This document shows, one piece after another, positions 14,351 through 60,838 of a stretch of 64,000 nt of DNA; the stretch's first letter is position 1, and each line of letters begins with the position of its first letter. The position numbers were made by a program, and so were the translations under genes. The DNA comes from Psammoneis japonica (taxonomy: Eukaryota). The notes under the pieces are model-generated. The model did no database searches, had not been told where the DNA came from, and saw nothing but the letters and a program-made list of their open reading frames with translations. The stretch is taken from positions 186,001-250,000 of the forward strand of contig QPGO01000053.1 of NCBI GenBank assembly GCA_008632985.1, written 5' to 3'.

Positions 14351-14391
14351 GTTTGCAAGCACTGAGTGCAGTGCCAGCAACTCTTTGGAGT

Positions 14392-14730
14392 GAATGTTGA
14401 GCTGGCAAGTCAATGTCACACCAAAAGGGAATGCCGCCAGACTTCCTGCGACACTCAGCACACTTGCCTTGGCACTCTGCAATGGCTGTGGGTTGCCAAA
14501 GGTGTCAATGTAAACTGTGAACTTGCACAACAAAGGTGCCCACTGACACCAAATGACAAATTGCACAAACCAAATGATTCGCTCCAAAGAGTGAGATGAA
14601 AAAACAAAAGCAAGGGGCAGATGACAGCAAGACTCTCCTCACACAGAATCACTCAGTGGGCCACATCAGGACACAAAGTGTCTTTCCTTCAACACATCCA
14701 GGTGCCTTGTGATGTCCTGAATCCAGATGC
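14392..14730. repeat. Degenerate LTR-like repeat, copy 2, abutting the 3' side of the gypsy remnant
   Basis: Aligns by eye to 6914-7220. Confidence 0.7.
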
Positions 14731-14799
14731 TCCACCAGCCAATGAACTCACTGTCATTTTTGTGAGAATGCAGCATTTTGGCCTGGGACATCAAGACAG

Positions 14800-38400: not shown

Positions 38401-38820
38401 GAGCTGCAACAAGTCTTTGGCGGCGTCATTTAGGAACGGGGTCGAGTCGTCAGTGTCCTTGTGATTGGCAATCAAAAATCGAGCTTTTGCTCTTCTGTAG
38501 AGCAGCTTACATCGCAAAGATGATATTGCCTTTTCGTCCGACGTTTTGCTGCTTATTTTTTCGAGACATTCCAACGCCCGCGTACAATCACCAACAACAT
38601 CTTCCAACAAATTTAAATCATTATTGTTCGTTTGTTGTTTGAGACGACAAGCTGCTCGGTTCGATAGCAACATAACTTCTAGCATAGTTCCGTTGCCACC
38701 GTGTCTGAGCTCCAGCAAGGCATTGGTATAGTAGCGAATGGCTTGATCAATGTCGTTGTTTTGGAAGCACGCATTTCCTTTTTGTTTTAGTTCTTCGACT
38801 TTTGCCGTCGGATCGCTCAT
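35383..38820 (-). CDS. UNC45: UNC-45/UCS myosin chaperone with N-terminal TPR; exons 38820-36238, 36150-35383
   Basis: TPR (LKQKGNACF...AIRYYTNAL...LSNRAACRLK). UCS motifs GIELLSYLASKTIVKEEL, RGSMVQQG, IAKLLVTTNP, HFEALLAVTNLAS, MVRRAATEAMCNL. Confidence 0.9.
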
Positions 38821-38895: not shown

Positions 38896-40825
38896 TCAGA
38901 AAGCTTCACCAGAGAGTTGCGCTTCGAAGATTTCAAGTACAGCGCCAATCATCGCGATCATGTTGATAGAGACGAGAGAGCCGAGGTCGAGATCGCGATG
39001 AGCGACGATGATGTGCGTCGCGGGGGCGCGCTCGGCGGCGCGCCTGCGATGTTCAACAGCATCAGCTTCTAACCAATGAACTGCTGTTCTGGGTTGTGAT
39101 GTGAGAGAGCCAAGGTTGCAGCAACCAGATGCAGGGCAGCGGCAGCAAATGAGCCAAGGCAGCAGACTCTGCCTGCCACCAGCTGGACATCCCCCATGCA
39201 AGAAAAGTTTCCAGCAGGGTGGCCACATGTTCACCAGCAGTGCACAACGAGAGAAGAGCCACAGGCCATCACACCACACATGTGTTGACTGTCACCTTTT
39301 CTTGTGTCAGCACATGGGCTGAGTGCTGTGTGGCAGTGTGCATGATCCACAGGAGGGTAGCAATTTTGGGACTGGTTTCACTTGGTCAGGAGACAGATCT
39401 TGTTTCTTGCAGGAATGGGTGGATTTGGCAGGCAATCGTGGTGTGTCCAGTGTTTGGCGGGGGAGCTTCCAAAAAAGTCATCCATCAAGATGGCACGCAT
39501 GCTGGGGGTGAAGTGCAGGGCAAAGTGACAGCAAGTGACCTGAGTTCTTCCAGCAGCTTTTGACATTGGCCACAGAACATTTGCACAGCATGTGGACATC
39601 AGAGTGCACGAAATGTTAAAAATGTGCAGATTCGCATGATGATGATTTGTTAAAATGTTGCAAAATGTTGTTGTCACATGATGACAGGCCAACCTCTGGT
39701 TGCAAGTTTGGTGCACCAACATTGCAGTGACTTGTTGAGAATCATGTTTGCTGTTTTTCACCATGTCCACATCACCATTTCTGCCTCCACCTTGTTGCCA
39801 TGTGCCAATGCGTGATTGCATTGTGCCACACAAACCTTGGTTTGCCAATTTTCGCAAACATTGTTTTAAACGAGAAAAACATTTCATTGGTCAAGTCAAT
39901 TCCTTGTTGCATCTGCAGTGCAATGACTGAGTGCCGTGTCAACTGTGCGCACATTTTCTTGCTGCAACTCTCTTAAACCAAGCCAACAATCATCATCGGA
40001 CTCGTCTTCATTGGACTCGTCTTCATGATTCGTCTCCTCCGTCGTTTGTTTTTCCTTTTGTGCCTTCCTCCTGCTCATCATTGTTGCCATTGTCGTCCCT
40101 GCTGCTCTCCACCATTGGGCTGTTCATTGCCTTCACCTTCTCCGTGTCACTGGCCGGTGCTGTCTTCTTCTTCTTTTTTGCTTCTCTTCGGACTTCTCGC
40201 ACTCGCTTTTCTTGATCTCCGCGTGCCACTTTTCAAACTCCTTGCCCTCCTTGGAGTCTCTGTCTTTTGTCACCTCTGTGTGTGAATCGTTGAACCGAAT
40301 GATTCCGTTGTCTCCCTAAGACTCTCGTTGTTTCTTTGGCTTCATGCACCGAGGGGCAGGCCTTGTTTCTTCGAGCTCCATTTCCTCACCCAATTCTTCC
40401 ACCGCCTCCTCCTTGTTCCTGCATGCCCACACCTGCCAACAATTCTCCACAGCTGACAGTGCCAAAGCTTCGTCACCTGCCACAAACAACTGTGAGACCT
40501 GTGCGTTCCCAGTTTTGACGGCGCGACTCCATGCCTGCTTTTGCTTGGTTTGAGGTGGGATGTGATCACAGAACCACTTGCATGCCTGCTTGTTCCTTCA
40601 TTTGCTGCCGGTGACAGTGTCCAGGCCAAACGGATCCCATGTCGGCACAAACAGGGTGTCATTCTCTTCATTCTTGTCACGGCTTGACTTTTTCCTGTTT
40701 TGCTTTTTCCTCCTGACTGCCGCCTTGAGTTTCTTTTCTTTTTCCTTTCCCTCTTCCTTGGTGACAATGCCTGCACAGACAAAGCATCACCGTCATCTTC
40801 TTGTGAGATGCGCACAACTCTCGAA

Positions 40826-41194
40826 TCACACACATTGGTCACTTGACTTGCGGGCCATTGCCTCCGCCTTTCTGCGATTGCCAATTTGCCTTTTTGCCGC
40901 CTTTTTTGCCCATTCCTCCCAAGTTCCTGACCAATTTGAAGTGTCCATGTTGCCACCAGCAATCTGTTTCTTGACAAACATTGAGACGCTCCCATTGCTT
41001 GCCAATTCTGACGGACTGAGAAACTTCACCTGTGGAAAGAGATCATTTCTGGCCACCTTCTCCACTTCTGATTTCAATGCACCATGCGCTGCCTGCGCAC
41101 CTGTTCTCTTCAACACTGCCTGAAGTCTCAGGCTCATTGGCCCAATGGTCTCATTTTTCTTTCTCTTCTTTGCCGGTGGTGCTGGAGACGACAT
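40826..41194 (-). pseudogene. Hypermutated hypothetical gene (NLS-like PAKKRKK; VARNDLFPQVKFL motif)
   Basis: Protein-like ORF with no Tyr. A possible decayed donor GCAAGT (from GTAAGT) lies near 40851. Confidence 0.4.
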
Positions 41195-41899
41195 CTTGAT
41201 CTTTGCGCGGCAACAATCGAGAGCAGTGTTGCTGTTTGACAGTGCAACCGTCGTCTGGGTCGTGTTGAGACAGCCAGCCACTCCACTTTTCTCTGTGACA
41301 TTGCACAAATTGTTGTCAGCAACATTGAAATTTGAAAATGTGTTCACACATGACAATGAACAGTCCAACTTGCTTTTTGATGTGGCTGTCATTGCGTTTC
41401 AACGGAGACAATGTCCTTCATTTTGACAGCAAATAAAAAAGAACAACATTCACTGCAAATGCCAGATAAAAAATCAAAATGCAGACACGTCGTGCCTGTG
41501 AGAATCATCCAAATCTGCAAGACAATGTAATGTTTGCCATTTTCCCGCCATTTTTTGCGTGTTGTTCTTCTTTTCCCGTCTCATCCACAAGACAAGGACG
41601 ACGAGCATGAGTCTTGATGAAGGCCCTGTCAAGATTGACCAGAGAACTGTGAGGCAACGGCATCAGCACACAGACTTGGTCAGTCGCTGGCAGCTTGGCT
41701 TTCAACGCCTGAGAAGACTCAGTGCTCACCTGAGTCATGGGTTGTCCCTGTCGAAGCAATTGGGGACAATGTTTTGGTTTATGAACAATGTCCAGGAGCA
41801 GCAGAAGTGCAAGAAAAGGCCCCATTTGTTTGGGCTGCACAGGACAGAAGGAAGTGTTGGTCAGATTTGTTTCTAAAACAGGATGCGCGTGTCAATCTG

Positions 41900-42877
41900 T
41901 CATTCACTCACAGCAATTGCCTGACTCTTTCTTGCAAACATGATGAGTTTGATCCTTTCAGAATTGGCAAAGTCATTGCGGTGCACGTGAAGCAGTGCGG
42001 TGCGAGCACCTTCCGTTGCTTTTGTTCTGATGTCTTCTTCGGAAACTCCAAGATGAGCTTCTTCCTGATCGGAAGGCTTTCCCAACCACCGTTCTCGCTG
42101 TTCTTGGGTTGTGAGGTTGCTTGCAAAGAACACTTGGGTTGTGAGGTTGCTTGCAAAGAACACGCACATGTCGAACACAGCCGATAATTTCTTCCATTGT
42201 TTGACGACCTGGAAGAAGGTTGCAAGAGCAAAGGGAATCACTGTGTCCCCCCCTTCTTCGTTTTTGGAGAGCAAGGCCCAAAGATCAATTGGATTTTGGA
42301 AAAATTGAGTCGTCCCAAAACGACTGTTGCACCACTCTCCATCTGGCATCCAGCAGCAGTCCAACATGATTTGGTCGAACCCATGATTGTCGAAATCAAC
42401 AAGTTTCTCAAACTGCTGCTTGACTCTCTTGACAAAATCTCTTGCTTTCACATTGCAATTTAAGTGCAGATCAGGATGTCCATCTTGGAGAGAAACTGTT
42501 GGAACGACATTTGTGATTGTTTTGTCAGATTCCTCAAATGCCACTGCGCGGGCCTCGTCTCGCCTGTGTTGGTCGGACAACACCAAGGCCACCCCCTTCT
42601 CAGAGCACAATTCTTGAGAAGATAGTTGCCTTGCATTGAGCGGATGGGTCATCCCCAACCACAGCACATTGTGTGTTTCCCCGTCAGTTTCATCACTTGC
42701 GAAACAATCTCCTGAGTCGCTGTGGTCCTCTTCACCCTCGGAGCAATGTGCAACTTGGTTGTGCTCATCATCAACAGGCTCTTCGCTTTTGTCCTCTTCA
42801 CCCATGCAAGCAGTTGGAAGTTTGCTTGTTTTCTTGTCAATTGACTCCTCCTTGCAATCATTGTCACCTTTGTTCAT
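41900..42877 (-). pseudogene. Hypermutated gene, possibly Rossmann methyltransferase-like
   Basis: Acidic N-terminus, NVLWLGMTH, GFDQIMLDCCWMP, and an internal 30-bp tandem duplication (42103-42162). No Tyr. Confidence 0.4.
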
Positions 42878-43013
42878 TGCGAATGACAACAAATCACCGG
42901 CAGCCTTCTTCCTGTTAGAACGAGAAATCAATGTGATGATGTCAGCACAATCAGACAAAAAACAAATGTGATTGCCATGAAAAAGCAACCTCTCTTTGCC
43001 GTTCCAGTTCGGC

Positions 43014-46000
43014 TCAAACTTTGTCAATCGACACGAGTGGGACTGGCTCCCATTCATGCCTTCCAAACCGCTTGATCATTGATTGCCCATCAGAGAACAA
43101 GAGCAACAGATGCTGTCCGCAACAAAAGACATCGCAGATTCCCATCTTTTCACGAGCTGCACTCAGGTCACATGGCAAAGACTCTGGGCCATTCTTTCCA
43201 CAGTCTTCCAAATCAAAATCACCCTCTGTCCGTTCCAAGAGTAAATCACACTCCTCCACTGGGACCTTCATTTCCTCCATTTGCTTTGCCGCTCCCAACT
43301 TGGCCACCGGATGGACAAGATTACGAAGGTCAGGGTGAGGATGGATCCCTGTGCCACACAGCATCAATGTCTGCACAGAGTTCATGCATCTGAACTCTCC
43401 ACAATCAGCACCTGCATGATCCCATGTTTGGACCACGGTTTGAAACACATCCTCAATCACCTTGTGGTCAAACGTTGGCTTGCCAACATTGTCGTTGATC
43501 CAGTCGATGACAACAACCAGTCCGCCAACAAGCAAATCCATCAAACCGTTGAGTTTCGTCCTGCACTCTGCCACATGAACCTCCTCGAAATTGAGTCCCG
43601 GGCTCTGCATGCGTCGGTTGTTTCGATCCCCCGCAATGCTGCCGAACAGCCTCGCAGCTTCTCTGAAGTGATGAAGGACACGATCGCCAGCCACGAAAGG
43701 ATGCTTCACAGCATCTGTGTTGCACAACAAGCAGTGAAAACGGGAGAATCCGGTTTGACACCCAGCCACAACGGCACAACAAAAGCAATCATGTGCACCA
43801 ACCTCATCGAGGTTGTCAATGATTGCCGAACAACCGCGCAAGAAATTAAAGTCCTTCATGATGGCAAACGGAAGACATTTCCTCGGCATGACAATGACGG
43901 GATGCTCAACTGTGTCGGACGGAAGATTTGGCTTGCCAATTTCCTCTTCCACCCACACAGAGTGAGGGTCAAGGAAAAAATCTTTGATGTTTCTGTGGGT
44001 TGGCTTGCCCGACGGAGGACAACAAGGGCCGCGGCATCTCATCATTTCTGCAGCATGTGACAGATCAAGTTTTGCGAAATGACCATGCACACACAATTGG
44101 AACTCGGCATGCCCATGTGCCGAACTGACACAGTTTCCAGCATTGCCTTTGGATGCAGTGACAACCTTCAACGACCAAGAGCGACCAACAGTGTCTCGCA
44201 GTGATGAGCAAAGAGCACCAGTCTTGGTGCACCCATCCATGTCACAATCCTCTTTGTTGGTGTGCAGCTCAGTTTTCGAATTGACGGATTTTTTGCCGGA
44301 CGACGAGATGCACTTAACTTGAATTTCCATGCCTTCCCTTCTAATGTGCTTGGCTCCAACCATCTTACGGAGCTCAGCCGCGAAAAGACTGTCACGGTGC
44401 GGGTCATGGAAGGAACGCATTTCTTTCAATGCAACAAGATTAATTTTGTCCTCGCAGAGTTGCGTGGCATCCAAGATTGAGGCCATCATTGCCTGCACAT
44501 CCTTTGGAAGCTTCTCCCACTTGTCCCTGCCAAAGATGGCACCAGGCTTGTGAGCAGGTCCCACTTCAGCTAACTCACCGTCTGCAACTTCGTAATTCTG
44601 GCCACAACAACCAAAACAGATCCGACAGCGCAACTTGCATTCTGGTCCATCCCTTTTTTCGTTCGGCTCGCCATGTTCCAACACTGCACGGAGCATCGAC
44701 GACACACTGAATCGCAACCCAAAAAAGCATTTCTGATGCATCTTGTCCGTGTGTTGCAAACAAGTGACCACGTCGTGAGAGGTTGACTGGGTCGGGCAAG
44801 TGATCGCAACCATCGATTCTTGCGTCGGATCATTGGGAGCTGTGCCATTTTCAAATCCATGCACAAACTTGCAGAGGTGATTTGCCAAGTGGAAATCGGA
44901 GATGCTGTGGAATGGCTGGTGCTTGACACAGAATGGGGGTTTCCTCAAAGACGACAAGGCAAGAATGTTGTGACTTCACCTCACCCGGAATCGCAAACGG
45001 AGATGGTTCAGGAAACACTTTCACAAGCTCTTCTTTTGTGAAATTGTCTGGCGGAGGAGGAGGCAACTGATGAGTCATGCCGAGGGTCGGCCACTTTGTT
45101 CGGGAACATTCAAATTGTTCCTTGAGAGTCAGCACATCTTGGAGAATCAGCGATTTGTTCTGAGAAACATCAGAAGGTTCACCATCTTTGGGGTTTTTGA
45201 GACTGGGGCTTGAGGAGCAAAGGGAGGCGGCCAAAGAGGTGGCAAGAAGAATGGAAGAATTGGAGATGAGAAGAGGAGGACAAACAATCAATCAAACAAT
45301 GTGATGGATTCATGCCATTGGGATTTTTTCGTTTCCGAGCATTTTTCGTAACGGGTGGAATTGCATTGCCGATTTCTTTCTTCTTGTGCTGAGTGGCAAA
45401 GTCACGAAGCCTGGCTTTCCACACAGCCTCAAAACGATCCCTTGCAGCCTTGCCTTTGCCGGAATCGTCAGCGGCAGAAACCACACAATCAATTTTCACA
45501 CATCTTAAAAGAGTCTCATCGACATGTGTTGCACACATTTGTTCTTGCTCGACATCGAGCATTGCCAGTCGCACAGGCTTTTCCCAAGAATGTTTGTGTT
45601 GGCGGAACAACGACTTTACGAATTCAGGGAAGGACATGGGGCATTCGTCTTTGGTCATCTCACAGTGACCAAGAGCCAGGAAATTCTCCAAAAAGTTGAT
45701 GCAAGTCGAGGTCTTGTCACATTCGCCGAACAGGGAGCACAGCCAACAACTGCAACCACCATTCCTTTCAGGTGCGCACGGTGGAATCTTGTCACGAAGA
45801 ATCAAAAAACCAATGTGAAGGCATTGCGCGTGACGCAAAACCTTCCCTTCAAAACTTCTCAGCTCAATGTGCTTGACAAGTGGCTCTCCCTTTGGGTCGC
45901 ACAATCCGGGATCATGGAGAAGCTTGTGCAACATGGAAATCTTTGCCATCACGTTGGTTGCAATGTCTGTTGATTTTGCCTTGTCGCCGACAACTTTCAC

Positions 46001-46411
46001 ATCCTCTGCTTTGGGAGCACGGCGACACTCCAACGCATGAGGATGTTTGGCGCCTTGACTGGAATGACTCCATCCTTTTGCGGAAAGAAAGTGCAGCAAG
46101 CTCTTGCACCCAAGTTCCTTTGCAACAATGCAGTTCACAGCCATTGGTTCTACAAAAAAATGAGGTCTGCCCTTTGACTTTTGCCACACATGGGCAAGTG
46201 CGATCCAATTCGGAGAGGGATCACAAGTGGAATTGCGGTGAAACTGAACCTTGGATTTCACCGTCTCGATTGTCGCTTTGACACGGCTCCGCTCGTTGCT
46301 GTCGATCACTCCAAAACCGTTGGCAAAGAGAGATTCAAATGTGGCCTCCTCGAGGTGGGAATCATTGTTGTCTTGCAACTGAGAGGCAACCGATGGGTCA
46401 CGCAGCGCCAT
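43014..46411 (-). pseudogene. Large hypermutated gene (over 1000 codons) broken by a decayed intron (45315-45231) and a probable frameshift near 44950
   Basis: ORFs 45179-46699, 44851-45291 and 43014-44957 are collinear and protein-like. Almost no Tyr, with excess Cys/His. Confidence 0.55.
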
Positions 46412-48912
46412 GGTTGCTGTTCCAACACCAAAAAATCTGGTTTCTGTGGAAACATGCCAGAGTGGTGTGTGGGAGAAGTCACATGCGCACCAGGTGCGAT
46501 TTGGAGTTTTAAACACAAAAACCTGCCAGACGCGCATGTGACTTCTCCCAGGGAAATCCTGCGTGAGATTGTGCCGGGAAAGGGCAGTGCGGAGTGTAGA
46601 ACTGATGGAAGAAAATGTTGTGCAGAACAGTGCGTTAAGGCACGTGAAAAACAGGTGGGTGCCTTCAAGTGACGCATGCGAACAATCATAAAGAAACATT
46701 CAGAAATGGAGATGGCATGGAGAGAAGTCAGAAACATGGATCCAAAACAAAGTGACACAACAGAAAAAACAACAACAACAACTGGAGATGAAGGCAACGG
46801 CAATGGGATTGATGAAAAAGAAGGATTCGGATGGAAAGACGCCGGAGACAGTGAAAACAGGCAGGGCCAAGACGAGGAAGGAAGAGAAAAATGGGACGGG
46901 CAAAATGAAGAAAGACAAAAAGAAGCCGATGACACGACATCAAGAGGGGAGCAGCAGTGCGATTCAGCATTTCGAGGGACCTCTTTCTCTCGATGATGTT
47001 CACCCAAATGCAAGAAATGCAGTGTGGCTTTTTTGGAACGGTGACGAGGAAACATCCAACGCGGCAGCAGCATGTTTGAAATTCTTGCAAGAGAGCGGAC
47101 AAGACACATGGAATGAAGAGGACGATGCGGACGACTGGGCAAATTGGAGCACAGTTGTTGATTGAACAATTGGTGCACACTTTGCATGATGAAAATTTCA
47201 TTGCATGCAGTTGCAATGTTTGGCTTGTCGTCAAAGATCGTCAGTTGTTTTGAAAAAGGCAGAGCACAAAAATTAAAATGCATCTGTGTTCAAACATGAA
47301 GAACAGCAGGAGACCAATGATCAACTGAATGACAAAAACCGTCATGTGCAGACAAGTAGATTTTACAACATGGCAATGTGTTTTTGTCATGTGTGCAGAC
47401 ATTACGATGTTGTGCACTCTGATGGAAACAGCCCTTGTGTGACAGCAATTCAAGTCTGGTGCACCAACATGGTGCGAGCTGCAGCATGATGCTGTCCTGC
47501 TTTCCTCCCCTTGTGGCAGCTGTGCTCAGTGGACAAGGGTCTTTTGTGTGCAGGGGTGTTGCACTCATTGAGGGGTTGCAGTGCATTGACAATGGTGCAC
47601 AGGAGGGGTTTGGCAGATGTTGTGTTGAGCGAACACGGAGCCCTGTGCATGGCACCGCCCACTGAGCCATTGACACAGATGTTGATGTGGGCCAGTTGGC
47701 ACTGCTGATCAGGGCTTGGATGTGGATCTAGTGTGATGTGGGGGGCACTGGGACTGCCAAGTTGGTTGTGGGTTGCAGGGGCAGCGGCGCATGCTTTGGC
47801 ACCTGAGTGGCAGCTAAAAGCAAATGCACAGCAGAGGCAGTGGCACAATGTTGTTTTGCACCAACTTGGTGTTTGCATGTTTGTTGATGGCATCAGCATC
47901 AGTGCAAAAGAAACATGGTGATGAGTTGGGTCAGCCCATGGGGGAAGTTGTGTGAATGTCACCACTGCTGACAGAGAGTCTCACCTGGTGTGCTTGGGAA
48001 GATGACCTCAAGCTGGTTGTGGGCATGATCTCAGGTGCACTCGCCCCTTGCTGGCAGGATGCACCTCAACAAGTGATCCAATGTGCCGGTGCATGAAACC
48101 CTCATGGCTTCCACAAAAGAATGGGGTTGGCCTGCCAACTCAATTTTTGGATCCTCAATTCACCACAGATCCAAGGGGTGGACACCACCAATGATGAATG
48201 CCACCCTTTTCCAATGCTTTGCCTTGTCATGCTCTCTGATCTGTGCATCGTCAAAGCCCTTCTAAAAACTGTTGGGGTGGCTTTCTATCTCCCCTCCAAT
48301 GGACCCATGCAGCCCACTTGTTGTGCGCGCCATTTGTTGTTGAGCACCATGATTCTGAAACTCAGAAGTCTTCACAGCATCGCGATGGTGAAGCAGAGGT
48401 GAAGGCTGTCCACTCACAATCAGATGACTGCCTGGTGAGAGACAGGGGGCGCATTGAACATCTTGCTCACTCAACACATCATCTTCACAATTGATTGGCC
48501 TTGGTTAAACCCATGTTAAAGTCCAGCATTCGAGAAGCAAAACCTTTTGCTGCCAGAGGCACGAGAATCGGGTGATGCCGATCTTGGCCAATTGCCATGC
48601 TCCTGCCGCATTGTCAGTGTGCTGGGGGTGTGGGTTAGCTTGTTGCTGGAGAAGCAGGGTGGAAGCGCAGCAGCACTTCAAAAACAGATTTTAGGTTTTG
48701 TTTTGTTTGTTGTTGAGTGGCAGACAATCGATGTCTCCAACAATTAATCTGGGTCCATGCGGCAGTTCGTCATCCAAAGACTGGGCAGATGCTTTGCACA
48801 AAGCCTGACATTTCATTGCATTTCCATGTTCATCTGGTCACTTTTCCTTCTTTTGCAGGTTCTGTGCCAACTGTCCCACAAAGTTTGGCATGCAAAAGCG
48901 AAAAGATGGTTT

Positions 48913-49571
48913 GGAATTGGCAATGGCCTTCCCACGCCATGCATGAATCCAAACGCTCCACCGAGACCTCCTGTGTTGCCTTGTCGTCAATCCGCAGTGT
49001 GAAATCCATGCTCCTTGATTTTTCCATCTGCGTTGAAATCCAAGTGATGAATTTGGGGTGGATGGATGATCTCTTTTCCTGTTGCCTCAGCACCCATGAA
49101 GGGTCCCTTGTGAATGCCCTTGACACGGTTCATGAACCACACATGATTGGTTTGAAGAGGATCAACTCGCAAGCCACAAAAGTTGGCTGAAATGTCAAAG
49201 GCCGACTCCAAATCAAAGTCACCAAGGGAATTGAGATGGGCATCTCGGGGAATGGGCCCAACAACTGCTGCACAGAATTCAAAATCATCGGCCAAACACT
49301 CCCCGCTGTCCTTGGCACCGAGACCGACGCTGGGACTTGGCACTTGTTTGGCGCGTTCCAGCAACTGCTCCGGGGGAATCGCAAAGTTAGAGGCTTGCAA
49401 GAGCTTTTCTTCATTGAGGAAGCTTTCGTCAAACATGGCGGTTTCTGTTGGTTCAATGGCGGCTTTGTCGGCGAACAAAGAAACCGTTGCAACACGATTG
49501 ACGGTGCTTGTTGCAGGAGCAAACGCCAAAGCATGGCCAGCAAGAGCAAGAGAAGTGAGATGAAGCTTCAT
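48913..49571 (-). pseudogene. Pseudogene of a host-type plastid-targeted protein of unknown function
   Basis: MKLHLTSLALAGHALA|FAP bipartite signal; LADDFEFCAAVVGP; GLRVDP. An in-frame TGA at 48989-48987 is followed by the continued motif RQGNTGGLGGAFG..HGVGRPLPIP. Confidence 0.7.
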
Positions 49572-49682
49572 GGTGCTGTCGTTTTGGCAGATGCATGCCA
49601 AGCACAGAGGACAGAAAATGCAGTTGCGTCGCTGCTGAGTCGTCTTCATTTGTTGTCGTCATCTCATCTTCAATCTGTCAAA

Positions 49683-49892
49683 TTGGGGGAAGTCTCCAGC
49701 CAGCTGCTGGCTGAAAAAAGTCTGCTCGTCAGTGCGTTTGGAGGTTTTGCAAGTGCAATTTTTACGCACACAAAATGAGACAAGTCTGACCAGTGTTCAC
49801 CAAAACCCCCTGATGCACAGATTGACAGACTCTTTCAGTGCAATTTCTACACAAAATTTTTCAGCCAGCAACTGGCTGGAGACTTCCCCCAA
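49683..49892. mobile_element. MITE-like element with 36-bp terminal inverted repeats
   Basis: ttgggggaagtctccagccagctgctggctgaaaaa (49683-49718) versus the reverse complement of 49857-49892: one mismatch. No clear TSD. Confidence 0.6.
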
Positions 49893-50859
49893 AATGCGAA
49901 ATGACAAGAGTGTTGGAACCGCACGAGGTGCGGACCCACTTCTGCCGGCAGTTGTTTGCATTGGCCCGGTGTGCCACACAATCTCCAACTCATTGTGTCA
50001 TGTCATCCTGGCAGCTTGACTCAGTGCCAAGCAATGGGCCCAACAATGGTGTCCCTGCTCACTTGCGCCAGCCAGCAAGAGGGCAGCACCAAAACCAGAG
50101 TCGGTCAAAAGGCAGAGAGTGGAGGAAGAAGGGGCCAAAACAGGTTCCAACAGGTGCCTGTCAGGATCTGTTGCGTGCTGCAGCGCCGCATGATGAAACA
50201 TCAGCAAACAAAAGAAGCAATTGCAAAAACTTCCAAGGCTGTTGCTGGCTGCACCGGGAACAATGGCAGTGGTGGTGCAAGAGACTCTTGGACCAAACCG
50301 CCCAACTTTGGACCAAAGCCAGTTGCAGAAGAACACCAGACAAAATGCCGCACCAACACAACTCAAAAGTTGGAGAGCAGCCTGCAAAGTTTTCCAGGAC
50401 CATGAGCAGTCCCACAGGAAAACCTCACAACTGGGTCTTTCCACTGATCCTTGGCCAGTGCACATGCCCCCCACCCCCTGCAAAATTGAGCGGAGGTGCG
50501 CACGAGATGAAGGCTGGGCAGAAAGCTGTCACAGAGAGTTGAGGCTCCACAGCAGATGTGGCTGAAGTCAGTTTGAGCTGATTTGCAGAGCTGTGTGATG
50601 CCACAGAAAAAATGCCATTGCTGATGCTGAGCTCACCCTGCTCACCTTTTGTCAATCTTGCCAAATGTCTGTTGCACGCTGGTCTGCACAGTTTGTTTCT
50701 TTGTGTCTCTGTGGGGGCTGCTGTTGCAGCTGCTCTTTTCAACTGACCCACACATTCACAATGACCTTTGTTGCTGCTGCACTCTTGTCATGGTCAAAAC
50801 TTGCAGGCAGGAGGTCAGAAGAGGTCATGGACAAGTTGGTCATGCCAAAGTGAGAGGAC

Positions 50860-51360
50860 CTCATGATGTTGCCAACCAACCTGACAACAGCAAGCTGGGG
50901 GCACAGGCTGGCAGTCTCTCCCTGGTGCCCCCCCCCCCAGGCAACACTTCAAGAACCATGGTTGAGCAGCAGTGCAGTGTTGATCTTTTGGCATTGCAGC
51001 CCCATGTCACCTTGTCCAGATGGAAGAAGCAGGATTCTTGAACTTCCAAACTCCAAAATGAAAGGATCTCATGATGGTGCCAACTGGCCTGACAACAGCG
51101 GCAAAGCCACAGTGCAAGAAGAACCCCATGTGACAGTGCCGGCTAACCTGACAACAGCAAGCTGAGCGCATTGGTGATGTCTGGCAGGTGGACCCCAGAC
51201 AACAGCTTGAGAACTGTGGCTGAGGATTGCAAGGTTGATCTTGTGGTGTTTTGGCCCCACTTTTCACTCTGTTCCCAACAGCAGCAGACTTGAGTTTCCA
51301 ACCTCCAGAGTGCAAGGTCCCCAAGACAGTGCCAGCCATCCCGACAACAGCAAGCTGAGA
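50860..51360. repeat. Degenerate tandem array with an about 200-bp unit anchored by cctgacaacagcaagctg
   Basis: Motif at about 50880, 51088, 51147 and 51341. Segments 50880-51087 and 51147-51340 are homologous. Confidence 0.65.
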
Positions 51361-52937
51361 AAAATTTCAAGCAAGAATGAACCCTGTGGAGGATTGGCTG
51401 GGATGTGAGTCAGAAATGTGAAACTGCACTCTTTGTTGATTGTTTCACACATGCACAATTTTTGGAGGATTGCACCCTTGTCAAGCTCGCCTGCGGTGAG
51501 TTGTTGAGTGAGACTTCATGGCCCCAACCCCATTGATGACACGGCTGCTGCATTGTGGCATCAGTTGCCTGTGCCAACCTTTGCATGCAGTCTCAATGCC
51601 AAACAAGTTTTCTGTTGCCAAAGTGCCTTGGCTGTAATGGCCACTCATGCAGCCTTGGTCCTGAAGTTGGGTGCGTGGAGAACACCCACCTTTCTTTCCA
51701 ATGAGCAAGTTGGTGCCAGCACTTCAACAAGCACAACATCCAAATGACCCTGTGCAATCTTCTGCAAGAGACAAAACTGGTGCACTCATGCACAGAGCAA
51801 CAAGAAAGAGCTGTGCAAACAGTGTGGACAAAATTTGGTGTTGGCTGGCAGAAATCCAATGCCACAGCTGAAACAGAGTGCAGTGCGCAAGAACGGGCCA
51901 AAACAAAAACACAAAATCAGATCACAGCCATGTTGGCCCCAACAACTTGGCACCCCAAAAAATGTTTGTGGTGCATTTGTTGTCAATTGACAGCTTCAAA
52001 GTGGTGCTGCTGAATGATGAAGCACAGAGATTGACCCACACTGTGGTCCAGGTTGATGTTGAAATTTGTCAAATTGTGATGCAATGACAAGATCAAGTCA
52101 GTCAAGTGGCACTCATTGCAACAGGCAGCACAAATGGCAACAGGGATTGAATGATGACATGGACTTTGTGGGGGCTGCTTGACATTTTGTGAGCTGGGCT
52201 CTGGAGTGCAAATTGACACACTGGGTGGAAGGAAAGGTCTCAAGGAGGAATTTGCAGCTGCGCTGTCTGTTGCAATGGGAGGTTGGTTCAATGAGAAGTT
52301 TGTTTTTTGAAGGGAGAGTCTTTTTCATTGTTGTGAAACATGTGACAAGAACACAGCAGATTGCAGCAACAGGGGTGCTTCATTGTCATGCAAACAGCGG
52401 ATCAGCGGCTGAGTTGTGTGGTGCCCAATGCAGCACGACAAAGAGACAAGTGCAGGAGAGACATGAAAAAATGCAGTGTGGGCAACCAAGCTGAAGCTCC
52501 TCCAAACAAACAAATCAACCCTGAACAAGATGCTGAGAGCCACAAAACAAAACACCGCGTGAGACAAGCCCACGGCCGCTGGAAAAATCAACTGTCAAAA
52601 CCCAGCAAATGATGACTTTGGCAATGCCAGGCCACTTGTGGCTGAAAATGAGCTGGTGAATCAAAACACAACTTTTTCTGGCACACTTCTTTTGCCACCA
52701 TTTCTCAGTTTTTTGCTGTTGGCTTTTTTTTGTTTTCCTTTGCAGCCAGGTCGCCTGTCTTTTGTCCTCGCAGTTCTGCCACACAACCAATCCTTTGTGT
52801 TCTCCAGATGTCAGAAAGCTTTGTCAGAGAGTTGTGTCATGAAACAGTTAAGAACCAATCATTGCGATCTCACGGTGATTGGTTGTGGCTATGAGAGTTG
52901 TGAAACGGCAGAAGCGACGCTCTGCGGGGGGGTGCCG

Positions 52938-53213
52938 TGACAGAAATTGAAGGCAAATGGCAAGAATTCAAACAATGACTCCTTGCTGCTGTCTAAATGG
53001 CAGATGAGTCTCCGCTCAGAGACTGTTGCAGGAGCCGAAAGACGTGCAAGTCGGTGCAATCGGGCTGCTGTCATTGTTCTTGTGAGCCTTGTGACTCGAA
53101 AGCAAACTGCATCGCGCGTGAACGCGCGGAACCAAAGCACACAAAACTGTGCGCGGCAAACTAAACAGCGCGCGACACTTCGCGCGCACCCAAATCCTGT
53201 TCAAATCCTGTCA
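52938..53213 (-). repeat. 3' LTR (hypermutated copy)
   Basis: Aligns without gaps to 59769-60044 at offset 6831; only 2 TA remain. Confidence 0.95.
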
Positions 53214-56200
53214 CTCCCCAGTTTGCTTGAGGAGTCACAGAAACAGATTCGACTTCGGATGGAATGAAGTTCCAGAACATGAGGGGGCGGAGAAGGTCCC
53301 AGATTTGGGAGCAACCCCAATGCTTGCTGAGAATGTCAGCAGGGTTGCGGGAGCCTTCGATGAAGTGGAGCTCAAGGTGGCCAGAGGCAATTGCCTCACG
53401 CACACGGTGGAATGACAGTGCGGTGTGTCGCTTGTGTAACTTGGAGTGCGGGATGGTGGCACTGTCTACAACCGACTTGTTGTCACCGAACATGCAACCA
53501 ACATTGCGGATCGGGACGCCAAGGCAGCGCAGGGTGATGCGCAGGTCGACAATCTGCTCAACACAAGTCCTTGCGGCAACAAATTCAGACCTGCAGGTCG
53601 CAGTCTCCACGGTGGCTGGCTTCTTAGAGAACCAATCAGCTGGGAATTTGTTGAGGAAGTGGAGCATTCCCATGACAGAGCGTCCGGTGAGCATGCAATG
53701 GTGCAAGTTTGCATCGACGCAGTGGGTGGTGGTGACGAACTTGCCAAGGGGCGGTGGAGCGTCCTTCGGGATCATCTCTTCTGCTTCGCCATACACGGAA
53801 TGCATCCATTCACAGGCCGGAGCAGGGAGATCCGAACAGTCGGGCTCTTCCGTGCGAACGCGGAGAGCACCGTGTCGCATCTTGGAGAGGCACCCACAGA
53901 CGCGTTTGGCACGATCCAAGTGGCCCTGACGGGGCGCAGCTCGGAAGCTAGAGAGTGACATGACGGCCGTGGCAATGTCAATTCGACCAAGGGACACTGC
54001 CCATTGGAGTGAACCAACAAGAGACTGGAACTTGTGAATGCCATCGGGTCCCAGCAGTTCGGAAGTGTCCAGTTCGGGGTGGTCACCCTTCTCCAGAGGT
54101 GACAGGGCGTTGGTGGCAGGTTTCTCCCCAAACAGTCGGGTGCAGCTGTCGACCATGCGCTCGATGTACTTGCGCGGAGACAGGCACAAGGTTCCGTCGG
54201 GATCCCGGGAAAAGTCGCAACCCAGATGGAACTCAATGGGTCCCGCACCCTTGAGCTTGAACTTGCACTTTTCCGTGAGAGTGTCGACGAAAGATTGAGG
54301 GTCCTTCATGGCAATGGCGAGGTCATCCACACAAACGGCAATGCATTCACAGTGGTCGCCGTTCCTGCGCATCCAAATGTCGGGTTTGGCGCGGCAGGGG
54401 AAGAAGCCTTCAGCTCGCAGGCAGTCGGCGAAGCGCTCGTGCCAGCGGAGACCGGAGCTGCGCAGTCCACACAGTGCCTTGTGGATGACAAGGATGTGTC
54501 CTTCGAGTTTGCCAAATTCGGGTCCGGCTGCAATGCAAAGCTTCTCCTTGGTGGTGGCTTCAAGGTGGGCATTGCCAATGTCGGTGGCCCATGTCTCCAA
54601 CTCGTTGAGTTCGGCCAGGAAAATCATCAGCCGAAGGCCACGGAGGGAGACTACTCCGGAGCAGACACTGTCGATGGGTACGTCCGTGAGGTGCCCGTCG
54701 GCTGCGAGTCGTGCCTTGTGGCGACCGTCGTGTTTCACGTCGCACACCAGGTGCACTCGGATCTTCTTGTGTCCCGCAGGAGGAGTGGAAGACTTGAAGG
54801 GCCCGCAGTCATGGAAGACTTCGTATTCGTCGAGTTGGTCCATCTCGAGATTAGTTGCGTCTCCCCACTTGCGGTTGCCGTTGCATTCGTCCAGTGACAT
54901 GGCGTGTTTGTAGTTCCGGGGAACTTCGCATCCGCACTTGTAGCGAGGTGCAGTGCGGAAGGAGCGAAGCTTGGCTTGGTTGGCCATGCGAAATAGCTTC
55001 TTTTGGCGCCTCGCGATGGTGCGGAACCGCTTCCAGCCATCCGTGTCGAGGAGTCCGTTCTCTCGTGCGTAGATGGCACAGGTGACGGGGTCGTCCTTGG
55101 CGATGATGGCAAGAGGCTCGGACGTGATCTCCCCACTTTCCCATTCAAGCATGATGTTGTAGCTTGAGCCTTTCCAGGTTGGGTCGTGAGGCTTCAGAGG
55201 TCCTTCGTGTGACACGATGCGTCGAAATTTCCAAATGGTGGTGTCTTCGTCTTCTTGCTCAATGTGATTCATGATGTCATTGCAGGCAAGGACTTCCTCG
55301 CATTCGTCATTGTTGACAGAGCAGACGAACCCAGTGAGCTCAGGATTGCTGTTCACTTTCCATTCGTGGTCTTCGACGGCCTTGACGATGCGAGCTCTGT
55401 GGCGTTGTCCGTCCTCTTGTGGCTGCATGAGGAAGGCACGTCCAATGATGTCTTGTGGATCGAAAACTGGCATCTTGGGTGTCCTGATCTCCCCATCAGG
55501 AGAATCGACGGGGTTGTCGTCATGGCGAGATTTGATGATGGGTTCAGGTGGCTCCCCATCAGGAGGATCAAGACGCAGGTTTTGAACGGCAGGATCGGTG
55601 GCAGCGGAGCGGACGTTGGACCGGCAGAGGATCTTCTGAGTCTCGTCAGATAGAATCTTGAAGGTCATCTGGTGGCCGACGTGCTCAGCAATGCCAACGA
55701 AGCGTCCACGCAACTCACGGGATTCGGACGGCCAATCGGAGTCATCGAGGTGGAAGCACACGGGTTCCCACCAGTGAAAGCGAAGCAATGGGCTGATGTC
55801 CGGGGTGGAGCCAGCGAGAGTCTCGAGGGGCGTGCGCCAGTGGAGACGTGGGGATGCTGTGTGGTTGAGTGTGAAGCACACGCACATGAGCGCCAGCAGC
55901 CATGTGTGGGCGGGCGAACCAAAACGATCCATGACGGTGTTCGCCATGCGCTTCACGGTCTGGTGTCGATGCTCGGCAAAGTTTTGGTGTTGCTGGTGAG
56001 GCTCACTTTGCCAGCTGGAGATGAAGAGGGCGCGTAGGATCCCAAGCACTTTGTTGCTGATCTCAACTTGAGCACGGTCGCTAATGAGTTTGGATGGGGC
56101 ACCACGTTCACGGATCTGATCCTCAAGTGTGTTGACAAACTCTTTGTCCGTCTTAGTGCCGTAGACGTCAGTGACGGTAGACTCGGTGCCAACAAACAGT

Positions 56201-58829
56201 TGGGCGCTGGTGCAACCAAAGTCGATGGCCGGGGTGTCGGCACAAACGGTGTCAGTGGCGACAGGCTCGTTGCAGCAGTGCACATTGAGGGCGGGGTTGG
56301 GTGATTTGTAGGCCTTCCTAAGGTGTGTGCCGGCGGGCATGCGGGCGCACTGCGTGGTGCAGTCAAAAGTACGACGGACCGCATCGGCAGGTGGGAAGCC
56401 AAAGCAAGGCCGAAGAGATGCGAAGGGGGGGTCCTTGGGCTGCACAGTGCGCTCCGGAGGCGGAACGTCATCGTCCTTGGGGTCAATCGCATGTAGATGA
56501 CACTCGTAGAACACGTCGTCGTTCGGAATGAGGTGATCATTGAGGGCGGACGCGTGATCGGCAGACAAGGAAGCGGACATGATGGTCTCGTTGACAACGA
56601 CACGATGGCGGCAGTTGCCGCATTCGTCAAATGGGTTGGCAGTGGGATCGTCCTGCAGGTCAGAGATCGCGTCGCACCACTGGTCGTCGTCAGTGACAGA
56701 GTGATCGAGGACGGAAGGGTCCCATGTGTCATCACCGGTGAGGATGACATGGGGCAGGGTGTCCCATTCGGCATCAGTGTAAGGTCGCATGGCAACATGA
56801 GGCAGGCCGGCCTTGATGTCAATGGGGATGACACAGCCATCAGGAGTGGCAATGCGTTGCAAGCCGTTGGGCACCTTGACAGAGCGATCGTTGAATCCTG
56901 TTTGTGCCATTCGAGCTGGCCGCAGGAATGGATGGTCTTGCCCTTGCCCGTGTGTGCGCACTGATGGAGGATGGCGATGACGGGACCACGCTGGGTCTCA
57001 ATGACGGCACCAGCGGTGACAACAGGGATGTCCACCAATTGATGATCGTCAATGCCCTGAACGTCGACTTGGCGAGAGGTGCGTGCAATGACGCGAACGT
57101 CGTCGCCAGCAATGCCGCCGTTGGCCCCACGATCGACTAGAGCGCCAGTGCGTGTGAAGCGATGAGCAGAGGCAGAGCAAATGACATTGTGGTTGTTGAC
57201 GTGGTGGCAAGTGCGGCCGTTAAGTTCTGTGTCATCTGCAGAAGCTGGCGGGGCAGAGGAAGCGGCGGATGGCCCCGGTCGATTAGCATTGGGGGCTTGG
57301 TTAGGAGACAACAGACGTTGCAGATCACCGGGTGGCAGTGGCTTGCGCTTGGTGAGGTGCACCAGGATGGGATCATCCGAAGTGGCGTCCACATTTGGAG
57401 CGGAGTCACCAGAGTCAGCAGGAGTCGTGTTGGACAAGTTGACATCACCGTCACTCCCAAGGCGTTGGTCGTGAAGGTTGGCCGCAACAGACTCATGGTA
57501 GTTGCTGGCTCGCGGGTTGCGGGGAGGCGGACGAGAATGCTCAAGGATGATCGCCTTGGAGGAATCGGGCAATGAATCCCAGATCCGTTGGTGGTCGGGA
57601 GGGAGACGTCTCCATTGGTCACCGGTGAGGCTGGGACCGCGGGTGCAGGCAGCATTGGCCTGAAGGACGTCAATGTCGCTGTCAATGTCGTAGAACACAT
57701 CGTCGGATGGTTCCTCGGAGCAGACGTCGTGTGCGCACATGGCGCGTCGGGGAGCTCGAGGTGTCGTCTTGGGTTGAAACGCACTGTCATGCTGAGCTGC
57801 CGCGGAGAGGAGCAAGCCACAGTGTTGATCGCATGTGAGGCTCTTGCCACTCTGCGCACGATGCTGATCAGCTTGGTTCTTGACAGCACGGAGTTCCTCG
57901 ACAGGGTGCACGGCATTCTCGAGCATGACGCGCTTCTGTCCTTCAGAGAAGTGGTCACTGGCCGGGATGAGTGCCTCGCACTTGCGCAACTGATCTTGCC
58001 AATGAAGGATGAACCCGTGGGTCAGACCTTTCCAAGTGCCATCACCAAGACGTGCGGTGGCAAGGTGCGTGAGCAGGGTGGAGGACTCGACAGATGCGCG
58101 GGTGGAGGCAAGCACGTGCTCAGACAAGGCGCGGCAGACGGTCTGTGTGTCAGAAGACCCCACATTTTCGCGAATGAGAGCCTTGCCCTTGTCGGTGAGA
58201 AGGATGCGTTCAAAGACGGCGAACATGTGCTTTTGCTGTTCAGCAAAGAGCAGTTTGTCTTCGGGGCTGGTCGGTTTGTACGACGAGTCTAGAGTGCACT
58301 CGATGTCTTGGGCACGGGCTTGTGCCACAAGTGAGGTGTGCCAAGTGTGCCACTGCTTGTCTGATTTGAGAGCCGTGAAAGCGGTGGGATCACGCTTGAT
58401 GCCTCGCTTGAAGTCCCGCACCGGGTCGCGTGCCTTGGTCGGGTTGGTGACATGCGGAGGTGCAAGGGGTGAGCTGCCGATGGACACAGAAGACATGCAG
58501 TCGGGGCTGAGGCGGCAGGCAAGGAACTCGTCATGCGTGAACAAAGAGGAGTCGTTGGCAACGTCAAGACCTTTGTGTGCTTTGACAATGCACAGACCAA
58601 CTAGTGCTGCTAACATGTTCTTATGACCACGGGGCAAAGGGATCACATTGGTGCCGTTGTCGTGCTCAAGCGAGTCAATTTGGGACGGTGTGAACGTGAA
58701 TGGTTCCTGACACGAGTCCGTGCCGTCTTGGGCCAAAGCCAAACGAAGAGGACTCCCAGCACCTTGGGCAAGCACGGTTCCAACAACGTGCTCGAAACCA
58801 TCGGTTTGTTGCTGACGAGTGAGAACCAT
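53161..58829 (-). pseudogene. Copia gag-pol, inactivated by a 1-nt frameshift near 56895 and Tyr->Cys/His hypermutation
   Basis: Protease ALVDRGANGG. Integrase VATDT..ADT, LISDRAQVE, SEPHQQHQNFAE. RT KARLAADGH, DIGNAHL, CVDD. RNase H VDANL, SEFVAAR, GDNKSV, NPADILSK. Frames join as EWHKQD/(V)NDRSVKV. Confidence 0.92.
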
Positions 58830-59768
58830 GGTGGACAAAAGTGGTGTCAGGACAATCAATTCTGGTTGGGAAGCGAAGGTAGACTCGAAACTTGGGTGAG
58901 AATGGACTTGACTTGAAATGGACTTGACTTGAAATCTTGAACTATCTTAAAATCAGAAGTCGCCGGGCTTTGCTGTCCCGTTCGTTGTCAAGTGCTAAAC
59001 TTCCCATCCGGTCCGCAGAGTTGTGCCGGCACGTCCGAACCCGCAGCTGGCGGTGCTTTGGGTTGCTTGCGAGCGGAGTGGCAGGTTGTAAACCCCTGCA
59101 GGCAAGCTGACTAGAGGTGGACAAGACCCCCAAACCGTTCTTATTTTGTGTCGGTTGGATTTCCCGATCAGGCTGGCCAGTTGACGCAGGCGTCAGGCGC
59201 TGTGGACGAACGAACAAACGCGGGAAAGCACCCTCGCCCCAATGCAGGCTGCAATCACGGCTGCTTGCTCTCACAGTCATCCTCGTGGACCTGGTGGAAC
59301 TGTAGAGCACCAGTGGTCTGGGGTAGATCAGGCACAATGGACTCGGTGTGCTTGTAGAGTGGCAGCAAAACCGCAGTCCGAAGAGTGGGTAAAGGTTCTT
59401 GGCCGTGAAGATGTGTGTGTGCACACATGTCTTCAGCGACTAAGATCCTTGAATGTGCAGGGTTCTTGACCGTCAACCGAGGAACAGGCACATCAAGGGA
59501 TGTTGATCAAGGATGGACTTGGATGTGACCGTTGAATGCATGTCTTCAGCGATCAAAGGTGGCACAATCAATCCAGATGTCCAGCGGCAAGGAGACTTGA
59601 CGGTGACGTTAACTTCCTGCCGATGCCCTGGCATTGAATGTGCGCAGACTTGCCGATGTATGTAGGACATATACGGAGGTCCACGTAGGATTGAAATAGC
59701 GTTGTTGGTAAATCAACGACGATGATGGCGGTTGCTCAATGGGTTGACAATGAGCAAGACTGTCAATC

Positions 59769-60044
59769 AGACAGAAATTGAAGGCAAATGGCAAGAATTC
59801 AAACAATAACTCCTTACTGCTGTCTAAATAGCAGATGAGTCTCCGCTCAGAGACCGTTACAGGAGCCGAAAGACGTGTAAGTCGGTATAATCGGGCTACT
59901 GTTGTTATTCTTGTGAGCCTTGTGACTCGAAAGCAAACTACATCGCGCGTGAACGCGCGGAACTAAAGCACACAAAACTGTGCGCGGTAAACTAAACAGC
60001 GCGCGATACTTCGCGCGCACCCAAATCCTGTTCAAATCCTGTCA
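59769..60044 (-). repeat. 5' LTR (largely unmutated copy)
   Basis: Aligns to 52938-53213 and retains 15 TA dinucleotides. Confidence 0.95.
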
Positions 60045-60838
60045 TGCCGCGCCGGGAGGCGAGGGGTGTCGTTGTCCGTTCGTCTAACCCGCGTGTGTGA
60101 TGTCCCCTTCCTTTCCGTCAAGTACCTGGCTGTGTGACTTCGCGGAGACAGCGATTGTTGGTCGTGAGTTGAACTTGTCCACGTGGCGCGAGAAGAGTAA
60201 GTCGGTCACCGCGAAAGATTAGGACTATGTACCGCGTGTCGTTCAATTGTCGTACAACCGTCGTAGGAAGGACACAAGATCGATTGCTGTTCTGTTCTCC
60301 CGTATTCTTCTGAGGCGGGAGCCGTTACAAGGTGTCATATCGGTTTTAAGGTCTCTGAATAATTGTTTGAAATTTTCGCGCCAAAAGTAACCGCTGTGAC
60401 ATGGACCCATAAATCCGGTTTACGCCGGCCTCGTAAAATTGCACCCCTGGCTGCAAAAATTGAAGCTCGTCACCACCCTTCACGATTGACCCGACCCAGT
60501 CGCACTTTTGCGTCCTACCAAAAGACCGTAGGATTGAACGAATGTGTTCTTTGTCATTGGAACGCTTTCCGCTTCTCATCGGCTCAGCAGGTTTCAACGT
60601 TGGTTGGATGCCAGAGGTGCCGTCGATCATATTTTGCGAACACTGCATGTCAGAACACTATTACCGTCTTGGGTCAAGTAGAATTCGAGAACACTGACTG
60701 TCAGAAAGGTTGCCATAAAAAGTAGGAAGCAAGTGAATGTAACAGAACTCCTTTTGTTGCATTGAAACTGCTAGTCGAGAAGCTGCAAAGATAGCCCTAC
60801 CCATACAAGCACGACACAAGCAACCGCGATTAAACATC

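Follow-up and report, generated by a model that had tools for sequence, protein, structure and literature searches.

Towards the right-hand end of a 64,000-nucleotide stretch of the genome of the diatom Psammoneis japonica (assembly GCA_008632985.1, contig QPGO01000053.1, positions 186,001 to 250,000 of the forward strand; this whole stretch is called the window below, and its first letter is position 1) lies a copia-type retrotransposon whose two long terminal repeats (LTRs) differ almost exclusively at TpA dinucleotides. One repeat carries TA where the other carries TG or CA, and the copy that is poor in TA adjoins a much longer segment of chromosome that is poor in TA as well. We describe here the element, the depleted DNA at whose edge it inserted, and the mutational process of which both appear to be a record.

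The retrotransposon occupies 7107 bp (52938-60044) and is bounded by 276-bp direct repeats that align without gaps at an offset of 6831. A perfect 5-bp target-site duplication (TSD), TGCCG at 52933-52937 and again at 60045-60049, marks one bona fide insertion. All coding homology lies on the minus strand and falls into a gag region (56895-58829) and, in a different frame, a pol region (53239-56892) that contains a reverse transcriptase domain (Pfam RVT_2, E = 2.3e-21) and shares 58-62% identity with full-length homologs; gag and pol together match homologs of about 1850-1900 aa. LTR pair, 5-bp TSD and a gag-pol with RVT_2 are the hallmarks of a Ty1/copia-type element, while no integrase domain was reported by Pfam in the element at E<=0.001. 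Since the long open reading frames (ORFs) and all homology are on the minus strand, the TA-rich repeat at 59769-60044 is the 5' LTR, as the original prediction had it, and the repeat at 52938-53213 is the 3' LTR, both being read on the minus strand. The segment between the 5' LTR and the bulk of the coding region (58600-59768, minus strand) holds the 5' end of gag and the 5' leader.

Some further features of the element are recorded here for completeness. The change of frame between gag and pol falls at about 56893-56897, at a point where homologs continue as single ORFs of full polyprotein length, and in some family copies among the sequencing reads a C is inserted after position 56894 (X1: 5943 of 32177 depth). 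A frameshift mutation could account for the change, as could a shift that is polymorphic or programmed. Canonical TG...CA ends are found only in the 3' LTR, the inner end of the 5' LTR (59769) being A on the plus strand against T at 52938. Within the 64-kb window, neither tblastn with three full-length homologs nor blastn with the element itself found a second copy of the family.

Compared base for base, the two LTRs differ by 16 transitions and one terminal T/A mismatch (52938/59769), and the repeat coordinates, the offset and every position named in the original prediction were recovered exactly. Thirteen of the transitions replace a TA of the 5' LTR: the 3' LTR has TG at eight of these sites (52977, 52985, 52999, 53028, 53056, 53067, 53076 and 53109) and CA at the other five (53047, 53057, 53133, 53157 and 53176). 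The sole CpG difference is at 53024, TG in the 3' LTR and CG in the 5' LTR, and the adjacent pair 53072-53073 reads CA in the 3' LTR and TG in the 5' LTR. The 3' LTR thereby retains 2 TA against 15 in the 5' LTR, with CG counts of 20 and 21, which reproduces the earlier tally of 13 altered TA sites and one lost CpG of some 20. That 13 of the 16 transitions should fall on the 30 TA positions among the 275 aligned is not a matter of chance (hypergeometric P = 9e-12); A:T>G:C change at TA accounts for these 13, and for 14 or 15 of the 16 if the pair at 53072/53073 descends from TA. The 5' LTR itself is almost unmutated, with at most one event, at 59903-59904. The events in the 3' LTR are split between the strands, eight on one (TG) and five on the other (CA), they followed insertion, and by a rough estimate each TA site underwent about 2.1 events where each other site underwent 0.002-0.004, which puts the excess at 500-1000-fold. 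Both strands had been claimed to be hit, at a very high rate, and on both counts the claim is borne out.

The LTR pair alone carries no polarity, as a gain of TA by C>T change, in the manner of the repeat-induced point mutation (RIP) of fungi, would leave the same differences; the direction was therefore tested with outside sequences. We aligned pol with 60 homologous polyproteins longer than 1700 aa and 59-70% identical, taken from the 120 listed, and defined conserved-Tyr columns as those with Tyr in at least 80% of these 60 outside homologs. At 29 such columns the element has Cys 19 times, His twice, Phe twice and Tyr only six times, and the replacements include the active-site Tyr of the reverse transcriptase. 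When each homolog was left out in turn as a control, Tyr>Cys/His was seen at 0-3 of 37-38 columns in 59 of the 60 and at 10 in the remaining one. When the 75 mismatches at 615 conserved pol columns are read as codons, a single TA>TG/CA step explains 25 and a CG>TG/CA step explains 7, none is explained by CA/TG>TA, and 43 are of other kinds. The bias is visible even in bulk composition: Tyr makes up 0.87% of the 1266-aa pol ORF (53161-56961) and Cys 3.79%, where the medians over 121 proteins are 3.83% and 0.98%. Judged by these alignments, the outside homologs settle the direction in the element interior as loss rather than gain of TA. The change from A:T to G:C at TpA that the original prediction had read from the LTRs is thus supported by 21 of 29 conserved Tyr having become Cys or His, and by 25 steps of TA loss to 0 in reverse.

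The homolog that stood out among the controls, P0070 (a database homolog of ENA source), has six Tyr>Cys and four Tyr>His replacements at 37 conserved-Tyr columns. It may represent, in a dataset independent of this one, a copy with partial TpA hypermutation, though the hint is weak.

Not all TA sites were hit alike. The base 3' of the mutated A in the 13 LTR events is C in six, T in four, G in two and A in one, that is, a pyrimidine (Y) in 10 of 13. LTR sites that present T-A-Y on one strand were all lost (10/10), eight of them by a hit on that very strand, as were both sites presenting it on both strands (2/2); sites of the form Y-TA-R, where R is a purine, were lost in one case of three, and the two TA surviving in the 3' LTR are both C-TA-A. 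The survivors elsewhere in depleted DNA agree: Y-TA-R makes up 12/17, 28/52 and 15/40 of them, against 198/1215 in the background (Fisher P = 1e-6, 2e-9 and 2e-3, respectively). The preferred target is 5'-T-A-Y, an A after T and before a pyrimidine, which explains why Tyr, encoded by TAY, went mostly to Cys.

The element is one part of a larger pattern. Two blocks of the window, at about 5.1-17.3 kb and 39.1-59.6 kb, have observed/expected (o/e) TA ratios of 0.02-0.15, against about 0.6 in host genes. Three host-gene segments serve as reference, with TA o/e of 0.55-0.60, CG of about 1.0, and CA and TG of 1.10-1.22. Block 1 (5112-17303) is older and practically free of TpA: in its core (6200-17000) TA o/e is 0.02 (12 TA in 10.8 kb), CG 0.15, CA 1.97 and TG 1.80. 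The older part of block 2, which adjoins the element (39071-52932), has TA 0.06, CG 0.48, CA 1.65 and TG 1.64. Within the element the ratios for TA, CG, CA and TG are 0.13, 1.10, 1.16 and 1.86 in the 3' LTR; 0.15, 0.90, 1.56 and 1.30 in the interior (53214-58599); 0.35, 0.81, 1.28 and 1.49 in the leader zone (58600-59768); and 0.81, 1.37, 0.85 and 1.26 in the 5' LTR. Beyond it, the right flank (60050-60500) has 0.67, 1.31, 0.78 and 1.09.

Depletion edges could be resolved to 0.1-1 kb, and the adjacent host segments are at the reference level. On its left, block 2 ends sharply between 38967 and 39070, about 150-250 bp beyond the start of the ORF of an UNC-45-like gene (36226-38820, minus strand); on its right it fades over about 58.6-59.6 kb, in the leader zone, and the 5' LTR stands just outside. 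The two old blocks contain CA and TG in equal numbers (1392/1418 and 1428/1418), which means that there is no overall strand bias. The element has a G+C of 0.58, where host DNA has about 0.48; in block 1 it is unchanged at 0.48. The process is local, as the 5' LTR and the host genes keep a normal TA density. The insertion site was the junction between an older depleted block and normal DNA, and depletion now reaches some 6 kb into the element, stopping short of the 5' LTR.

A second, slower process is superimposed on the first. CpG decay has brought CG o/e to 0.15 and 0.48 in the two old blocks, against 0.90 in the element, and in block 1 the CpG-poor zone sits slightly inside the TpA-poor zone. 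Because the young element has lost its TpA and yet kept its CpG, TpA loss is the faster process: TpA was lost first and CpG later, and decay of methylated CpG cannot explain the loss of TA.

Relatives of the element from other sources provide a baseline. A scan of metagenome contigs with the polyprotein alignment gave 79 loci with relatives, whose whole-locus TA o/e is 0.45-1.01; their 1709 one-kb windows go no lower than 0.28 and have a median of 0.74. The element yields 13 such windows, of which the first 12 lie at 0.09-0.27 and the last, reaching into the leader, at 0.5. TpA depletion, on this comparison, is not a trait of the retrotransposon family. Six relatives (L065, L028, L061, L005, L015 and L066) have CpG o/e of 0.05-0.24 with an ordinary TpA of 0.45-0.70, L065 being the most extreme at a CG o/e of 0.05 with no TpA loss. 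CpG decay and TpA loss are therefore separable, and independent in different hosts.

The direction of change can also be read outside the retrotransposon. A 653-aa ORF in the older part of block 2 (43017-44975, minus strand), hypermutated and belonging to a family for which Pfam has no name, has 124 relatives in a representative library, down to E = 1e-74, and some of these lie inside proteins of 1100-1950 aa. Among its 15 top relatives Pfam gave no match for 14 and only two below-cut-off matches for one. The ORF contains a single Tyr in 653 residues (0.2%), against 2.5-4.5% in 19 aligned relatives, and at nine conserved-Tyr columns it has His four times, Cys twice, Phe three times and Tyr never, with 0-1 changes in controls. 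The same direction of TA loss thus holds in unrelated DNA. Among the depleted DNA, the retrotransposon is the part whose foreign nature is established.

Other contents of the older blocks are listed here. Pfam gave no credible match for their 80 ORFs of at least 110 aa. Four long stop-to-stop ORFs follow one another on the minus strand between 41903 and 47289 (391, 653, 506 and 327 aa), and the set may represent a mobile or viral element of an unclassified kind. At 50820-51359 lies a series of diverged repeats, 35-72 nt long, with 68-89% similarity and a spacing of about 190-270 bp. Across the graded left edge of block 1 runs a 344-aa ORF (4350-5384, minus strand) with a Hint module (E = 2.3e-27), which is either a host gene under erosion or part of the foreign DNA. 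The host genes of the window have long exons with few and short introns, and the C-terminal exon of a UPF1 gene finds its named best matches in diatoms only (Attheya, Ditylum, Nitzschia, Cylindrotheca, Fistulifera, Skeletonema, Mayamaea and Thalassiosira), at 65-81% identity across the matches listed.

The stretch is contained in four sequencing runs, all from one sample and one study, with no RNA run listed among them. Contigs built from these reads have a depth of 76 over 52500-52766 and of 59 over 60243-60500; summed depth inside the element, which is not a copy number, is 40,000-250,000 and indicates an abundant family. Variants between copies are nearly all transitions (250 transition against 23 transversion places in X1). 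Inspection covered 40 of 288 variant rows, none of them at the 13 LTR sites. Many of the 40 consist of CG, TG/CA and TA alternatives at one dinucleotide, including linked TG<>CA doubles, and CG is present in the window or in other copies at 23 of them. Independent decay of an ancestral TA or CG in different copies would be expected to leave doubles like the one at 53072/53073. A 774-nt contig (depth 69) equals 52500-52964 with 0 differences, and that stretch has 2 TA in 438 bp, so that the TA-poor sequence is present in the reads themselves. Finally, the depleted left flank at 52500-52766 has a single-copy-like depth, comparable to that of unique DNA, and the highly repeated 5' LTR is spared, a combination that may speak against a purely repeat-triggered mechanism like RIP.

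These observations would fit the following course of events. On a diatom chromosome that already contained a TpA-depleted block, a copia-type element would have inserted at the right-hand end of that block. Subsequent A:T>G:C change at TpA, locally targeted, affecting both strands and giving TpG or CpA, would have acted on the element from the 3' LTR up to about 58.6-59.6 kb. It would have taken 14 of the 16 TpA of the 3' LTR and some four fifths of the interior ones, sparing the 5' LTR and host genes. The same process would be nearly complete in the two older blocks, which would have lost CpG too, as methylated DNA does. In chemical terms, a TadA/ADAT2-like deaminase may convert adenine to hypoxanthine in the DNA of a silenced chromatin domain, the hypoxanthine being fixed as G at the next replication, and the enzyme may be directed by silent chromatin, spreading outwards from the older block and halting near active genes. 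Taken as a whole, a post-insertion, domain-limited TpA>TpG/CpA mutation, likely by adenine deamination, is in our judgement the quite probable explanation, in support of the original prediction's reading of the locus. The sequence itself shows where the changes fall, which way they run, that they affect both strands, that they are local and which context they prefer; the enzyme, its chromatin targeting and a role in defence are what we infer from the pattern, just as a deamination defence mutator is inferred in the Bigelowiella natans preprint discussed below.

Among competing explanations, mutation that is real and rests on another chemistry is unlikely, though far from negligible: thymine modification at TpA (of the 5-hydroxymethyluracil or base-J type) that mispairs with G, or a modified adenine that is misread, could produce the same changes, as sequence alone does not distinguish T>C on one strand from A>G on the opposite one. 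Thymine modification with a TpA bias exists in dinoflagellates and kinetoplastids. The preference for the 3' neighbour nevertheless reads naturally as T-A-Y, in keeping with the YAC or YAY>YAR preference given for TadA-derived deaminases in the part of PMC12528748 cited here. It is improbable that gene conversion or recombination between hypermutated and unmutated copies of the family made the asymmetry of the LTRs. Donors are plentiful, given the summed depth inside the element against 59-76 in the flanks and the many transition variants, but the TSD is intact, TA density shifts gradually over about 1 kb with no breakpoint, and the LTR differences outside TA come down to one CpG of some 20, the 53072/53073 pair and the terminal base, when a random donor would bring CpG differences, since family copies differ at many CpG (the 23 of 40 variant rows above).

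We give only a small chance to editing of the RNA or of single-stranded cDNA before integration, with the 5' LTR copied from plus-strand strong-stop DNA before the rest was edited. By the standard scheme of reverse transcription this would spare the 5' LTR and hit the interior and the 3' LTR, as observed; against it, both strands were hit (in the 3' LTR, and in pol with Tyr>Cys 19 times and Tyr>His twice), the leader beside the 5' LTR is partly depleted, and depletion runs unbroken into the unrelated DNA of 39-52.9 kb and recurs in the second block at 5-17 kb. Smaller still is the chance of an assembly or base-calling artefact, in which a TpA modification in silent chromatin would be misread as G or C. 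The platform of the runs is not on record and the runs may be the assembly's own data, but near-total, consistent miscalling on both strands is implausible, the depth-69 contig, of a depth like the unique flanks, is identical over the 438 bp of TA-poor sequence, the alternatives TA, TG and CA occur at the same sites in contigs from other copies of the family, the older blocks have lost CpG too, in the manner of real old methylated DNA, and the same signature was obtained by resequencing of B. natans mutation-accumulation lines (10.64898/2026.01.13.699255, main-text passages). The idea that the 3' LTR is ancestral and the 5' LTR gained TA by RIP-like C>T at CpA/TpG, for which only the missing polarity of the LTR pair speaks, can be practically discounted in the face of the codon and Tyr evidence from pol, of long ORFs that survive where CA>TA and TG>TA would create stops, of relatives whose TA o/e (0.45-1.01) resembles that of the 5' LTR, and of a CA/TG pair at 53072-53073 that needs two opposite steps.

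Several points weigh against the post-insertion, domain-limited mutation that we favour. The direction within the LTRs themselves follows from continuity with the interior and not from other LTR copies, and read contigs, though they agree exactly with both flanks, end at 52964 and restart at 60017, leaving the 13 LTR sites with no copy-specific cover. All runs with the stretch come from a single sample and study, possibly those of the assembly. The escape of the 5' 0.5-1.4 kb of the element is left unexplained by the model, and 3 of the 13 LTR events hit an A before a purine, which makes TAY a tendency rather than a strict requirement. TpA depletion is absent from all 79 metagenome relatives, and there is no independent second case among the sequences surveyed beyond the hint from P0070.

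If this reading holds, its consequences are both practical and biological. Change of TA to TG or CA never creates a stop codon, so ORFs of 968 and 1266 codons are still open in this dead element. As TAA and TAG stops are removed, G+C is raised and Tyr becomes Cys or His, such dead elements keep long ORFs that will mislead gene prediction, Pfam-based transposon annotation and dating by LTR divergence. The two LTRs offer a built-in before-and-after comparison, and the locus adds features that constrain the mechanism: a 3' pyrimidine preference, saturation, domain edges beside host genes, a spared 5' LTR, and loss of TpA before CpG. More speculatively, and with rather less than even confidence, we suggest that diatoms, and possibly a wider stramenopile-alveolate-rhizarian group, might possess a chromatin-domain-directed 5'-TAY DNA adenine deaminase system that is independent of duplication and permanently inactivates transposons and invading DNA alongside cytosine methylation, spreading from silent blocks into new insertions and stopping at the boundaries of active genes. 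Such a system would mirror RIP in function and be the first natural A-to-G editor of a double-stranded genome in eukaryotes, and a natural DNA adenine deaminase would be of interest to base-editing research. To our knowledge, no eukaryotic genome defence that destroys TpA by A:T>G:C change was known before the 2026 Bigelowiella preprint.

Several known systems invite comparison. With RIP the process shares dinucleotide-specific transition hypermutation on both strands and the inactivation of transposons in place. RIP, however, consists mainly of C>T at CpA, which creates TpA and stops; here the direction is opposite, TpA being destroyed, G+C raised and ORFs left open. ADAR and APOBEC enzymes likewise produce deaminase-driven clusters of transitions in copies of retrotransposons, and ADAR prefers a 5' U (discussion section of 10.64898/2026.01.13.699255). 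They act on RNA or minus-strand cDNA, so that their changes are strand-specific and copied into both LTRs; an ADAR- or APOBEC-edited copy was considered and rejected here, where both strands are hit, the LTRs differ, and adjacent DNA that is not a retroelement is depleted as well. TadA and ADAT2 resemble the process in deaminating an A that follows a pyrimidine, and TadA-derived DNA deaminases, which prefer YAC or YAY>YAR according to the part of PMC12528748 cited here, recall in their engineered YAY>YAR the order TAY>TAR seen at this locus. The natural enzymes act on tRNA, and the likeness is one of motif only.

The closest parallel by far is found in the chlorarachniophyte B. natans. The original prediction knew of no eukaryotic pathway with this signature, a statement now outdated: a preprint dated 2026-04-14 (10.64898/2026.01.13.699255, of which the main-text passages are used here) describes the same signature. 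In mutation-accumulation lines, integrated giant-virus and virophage regions acquire about 6e-7 mutations per site per generation, exceeding the background more than 1000-fold; of 231 changes, 230 are A>G or T>C, all at TpA. The genome contains 124 TpA-depleted clusters enriched in CpA and TpG, in which reverse-transcriptase and DDE domains are enriched, and the authors propose DNA adenine deamination with an ADAT2-like candidate. A full-text literature search returned no diatom report of a TpA>TpG/CpA signature, and none elsewhere besides B. natans.

To judge from those passages, the two cases have in common a change that is almost only A>G/T>C, confined to TpA and yielding TpG or CpA, the hitting of foreign DNA with neighbours unaffected, a rate excess of the order of 1000-fold, and TpA-depleted, CpA- and TpG-rich clusters; at the diatom locus, too, change is nearly exclusively A:T>G:C, confined to TpA with both products, local and rapid. 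They differ in that the evidence here is historical and the B. natans mutations were observed in lines, and in that depletion here is near-saturating, with TA o/e of 0.02-0.15 against a Rho of 0.45 reported for a B. natans virus region. The 3' pyrimidine preference, the graded and sharp edges and the nested CpG decay belong to the present locus and do not appear in the main-text passages of the preprint. Where B. natans has a giant virus and a virophage as targets, the present locus has an LTR retrotransposon and an unnamed ORF family, and the host is a stramenopile, not a rhizarian. The signature is thereby extended to a different supergroup branch, one that is ecologically dominant and includes genetically tractable species, and the case represents a new lineage and a new type of target for a process that had been described once.

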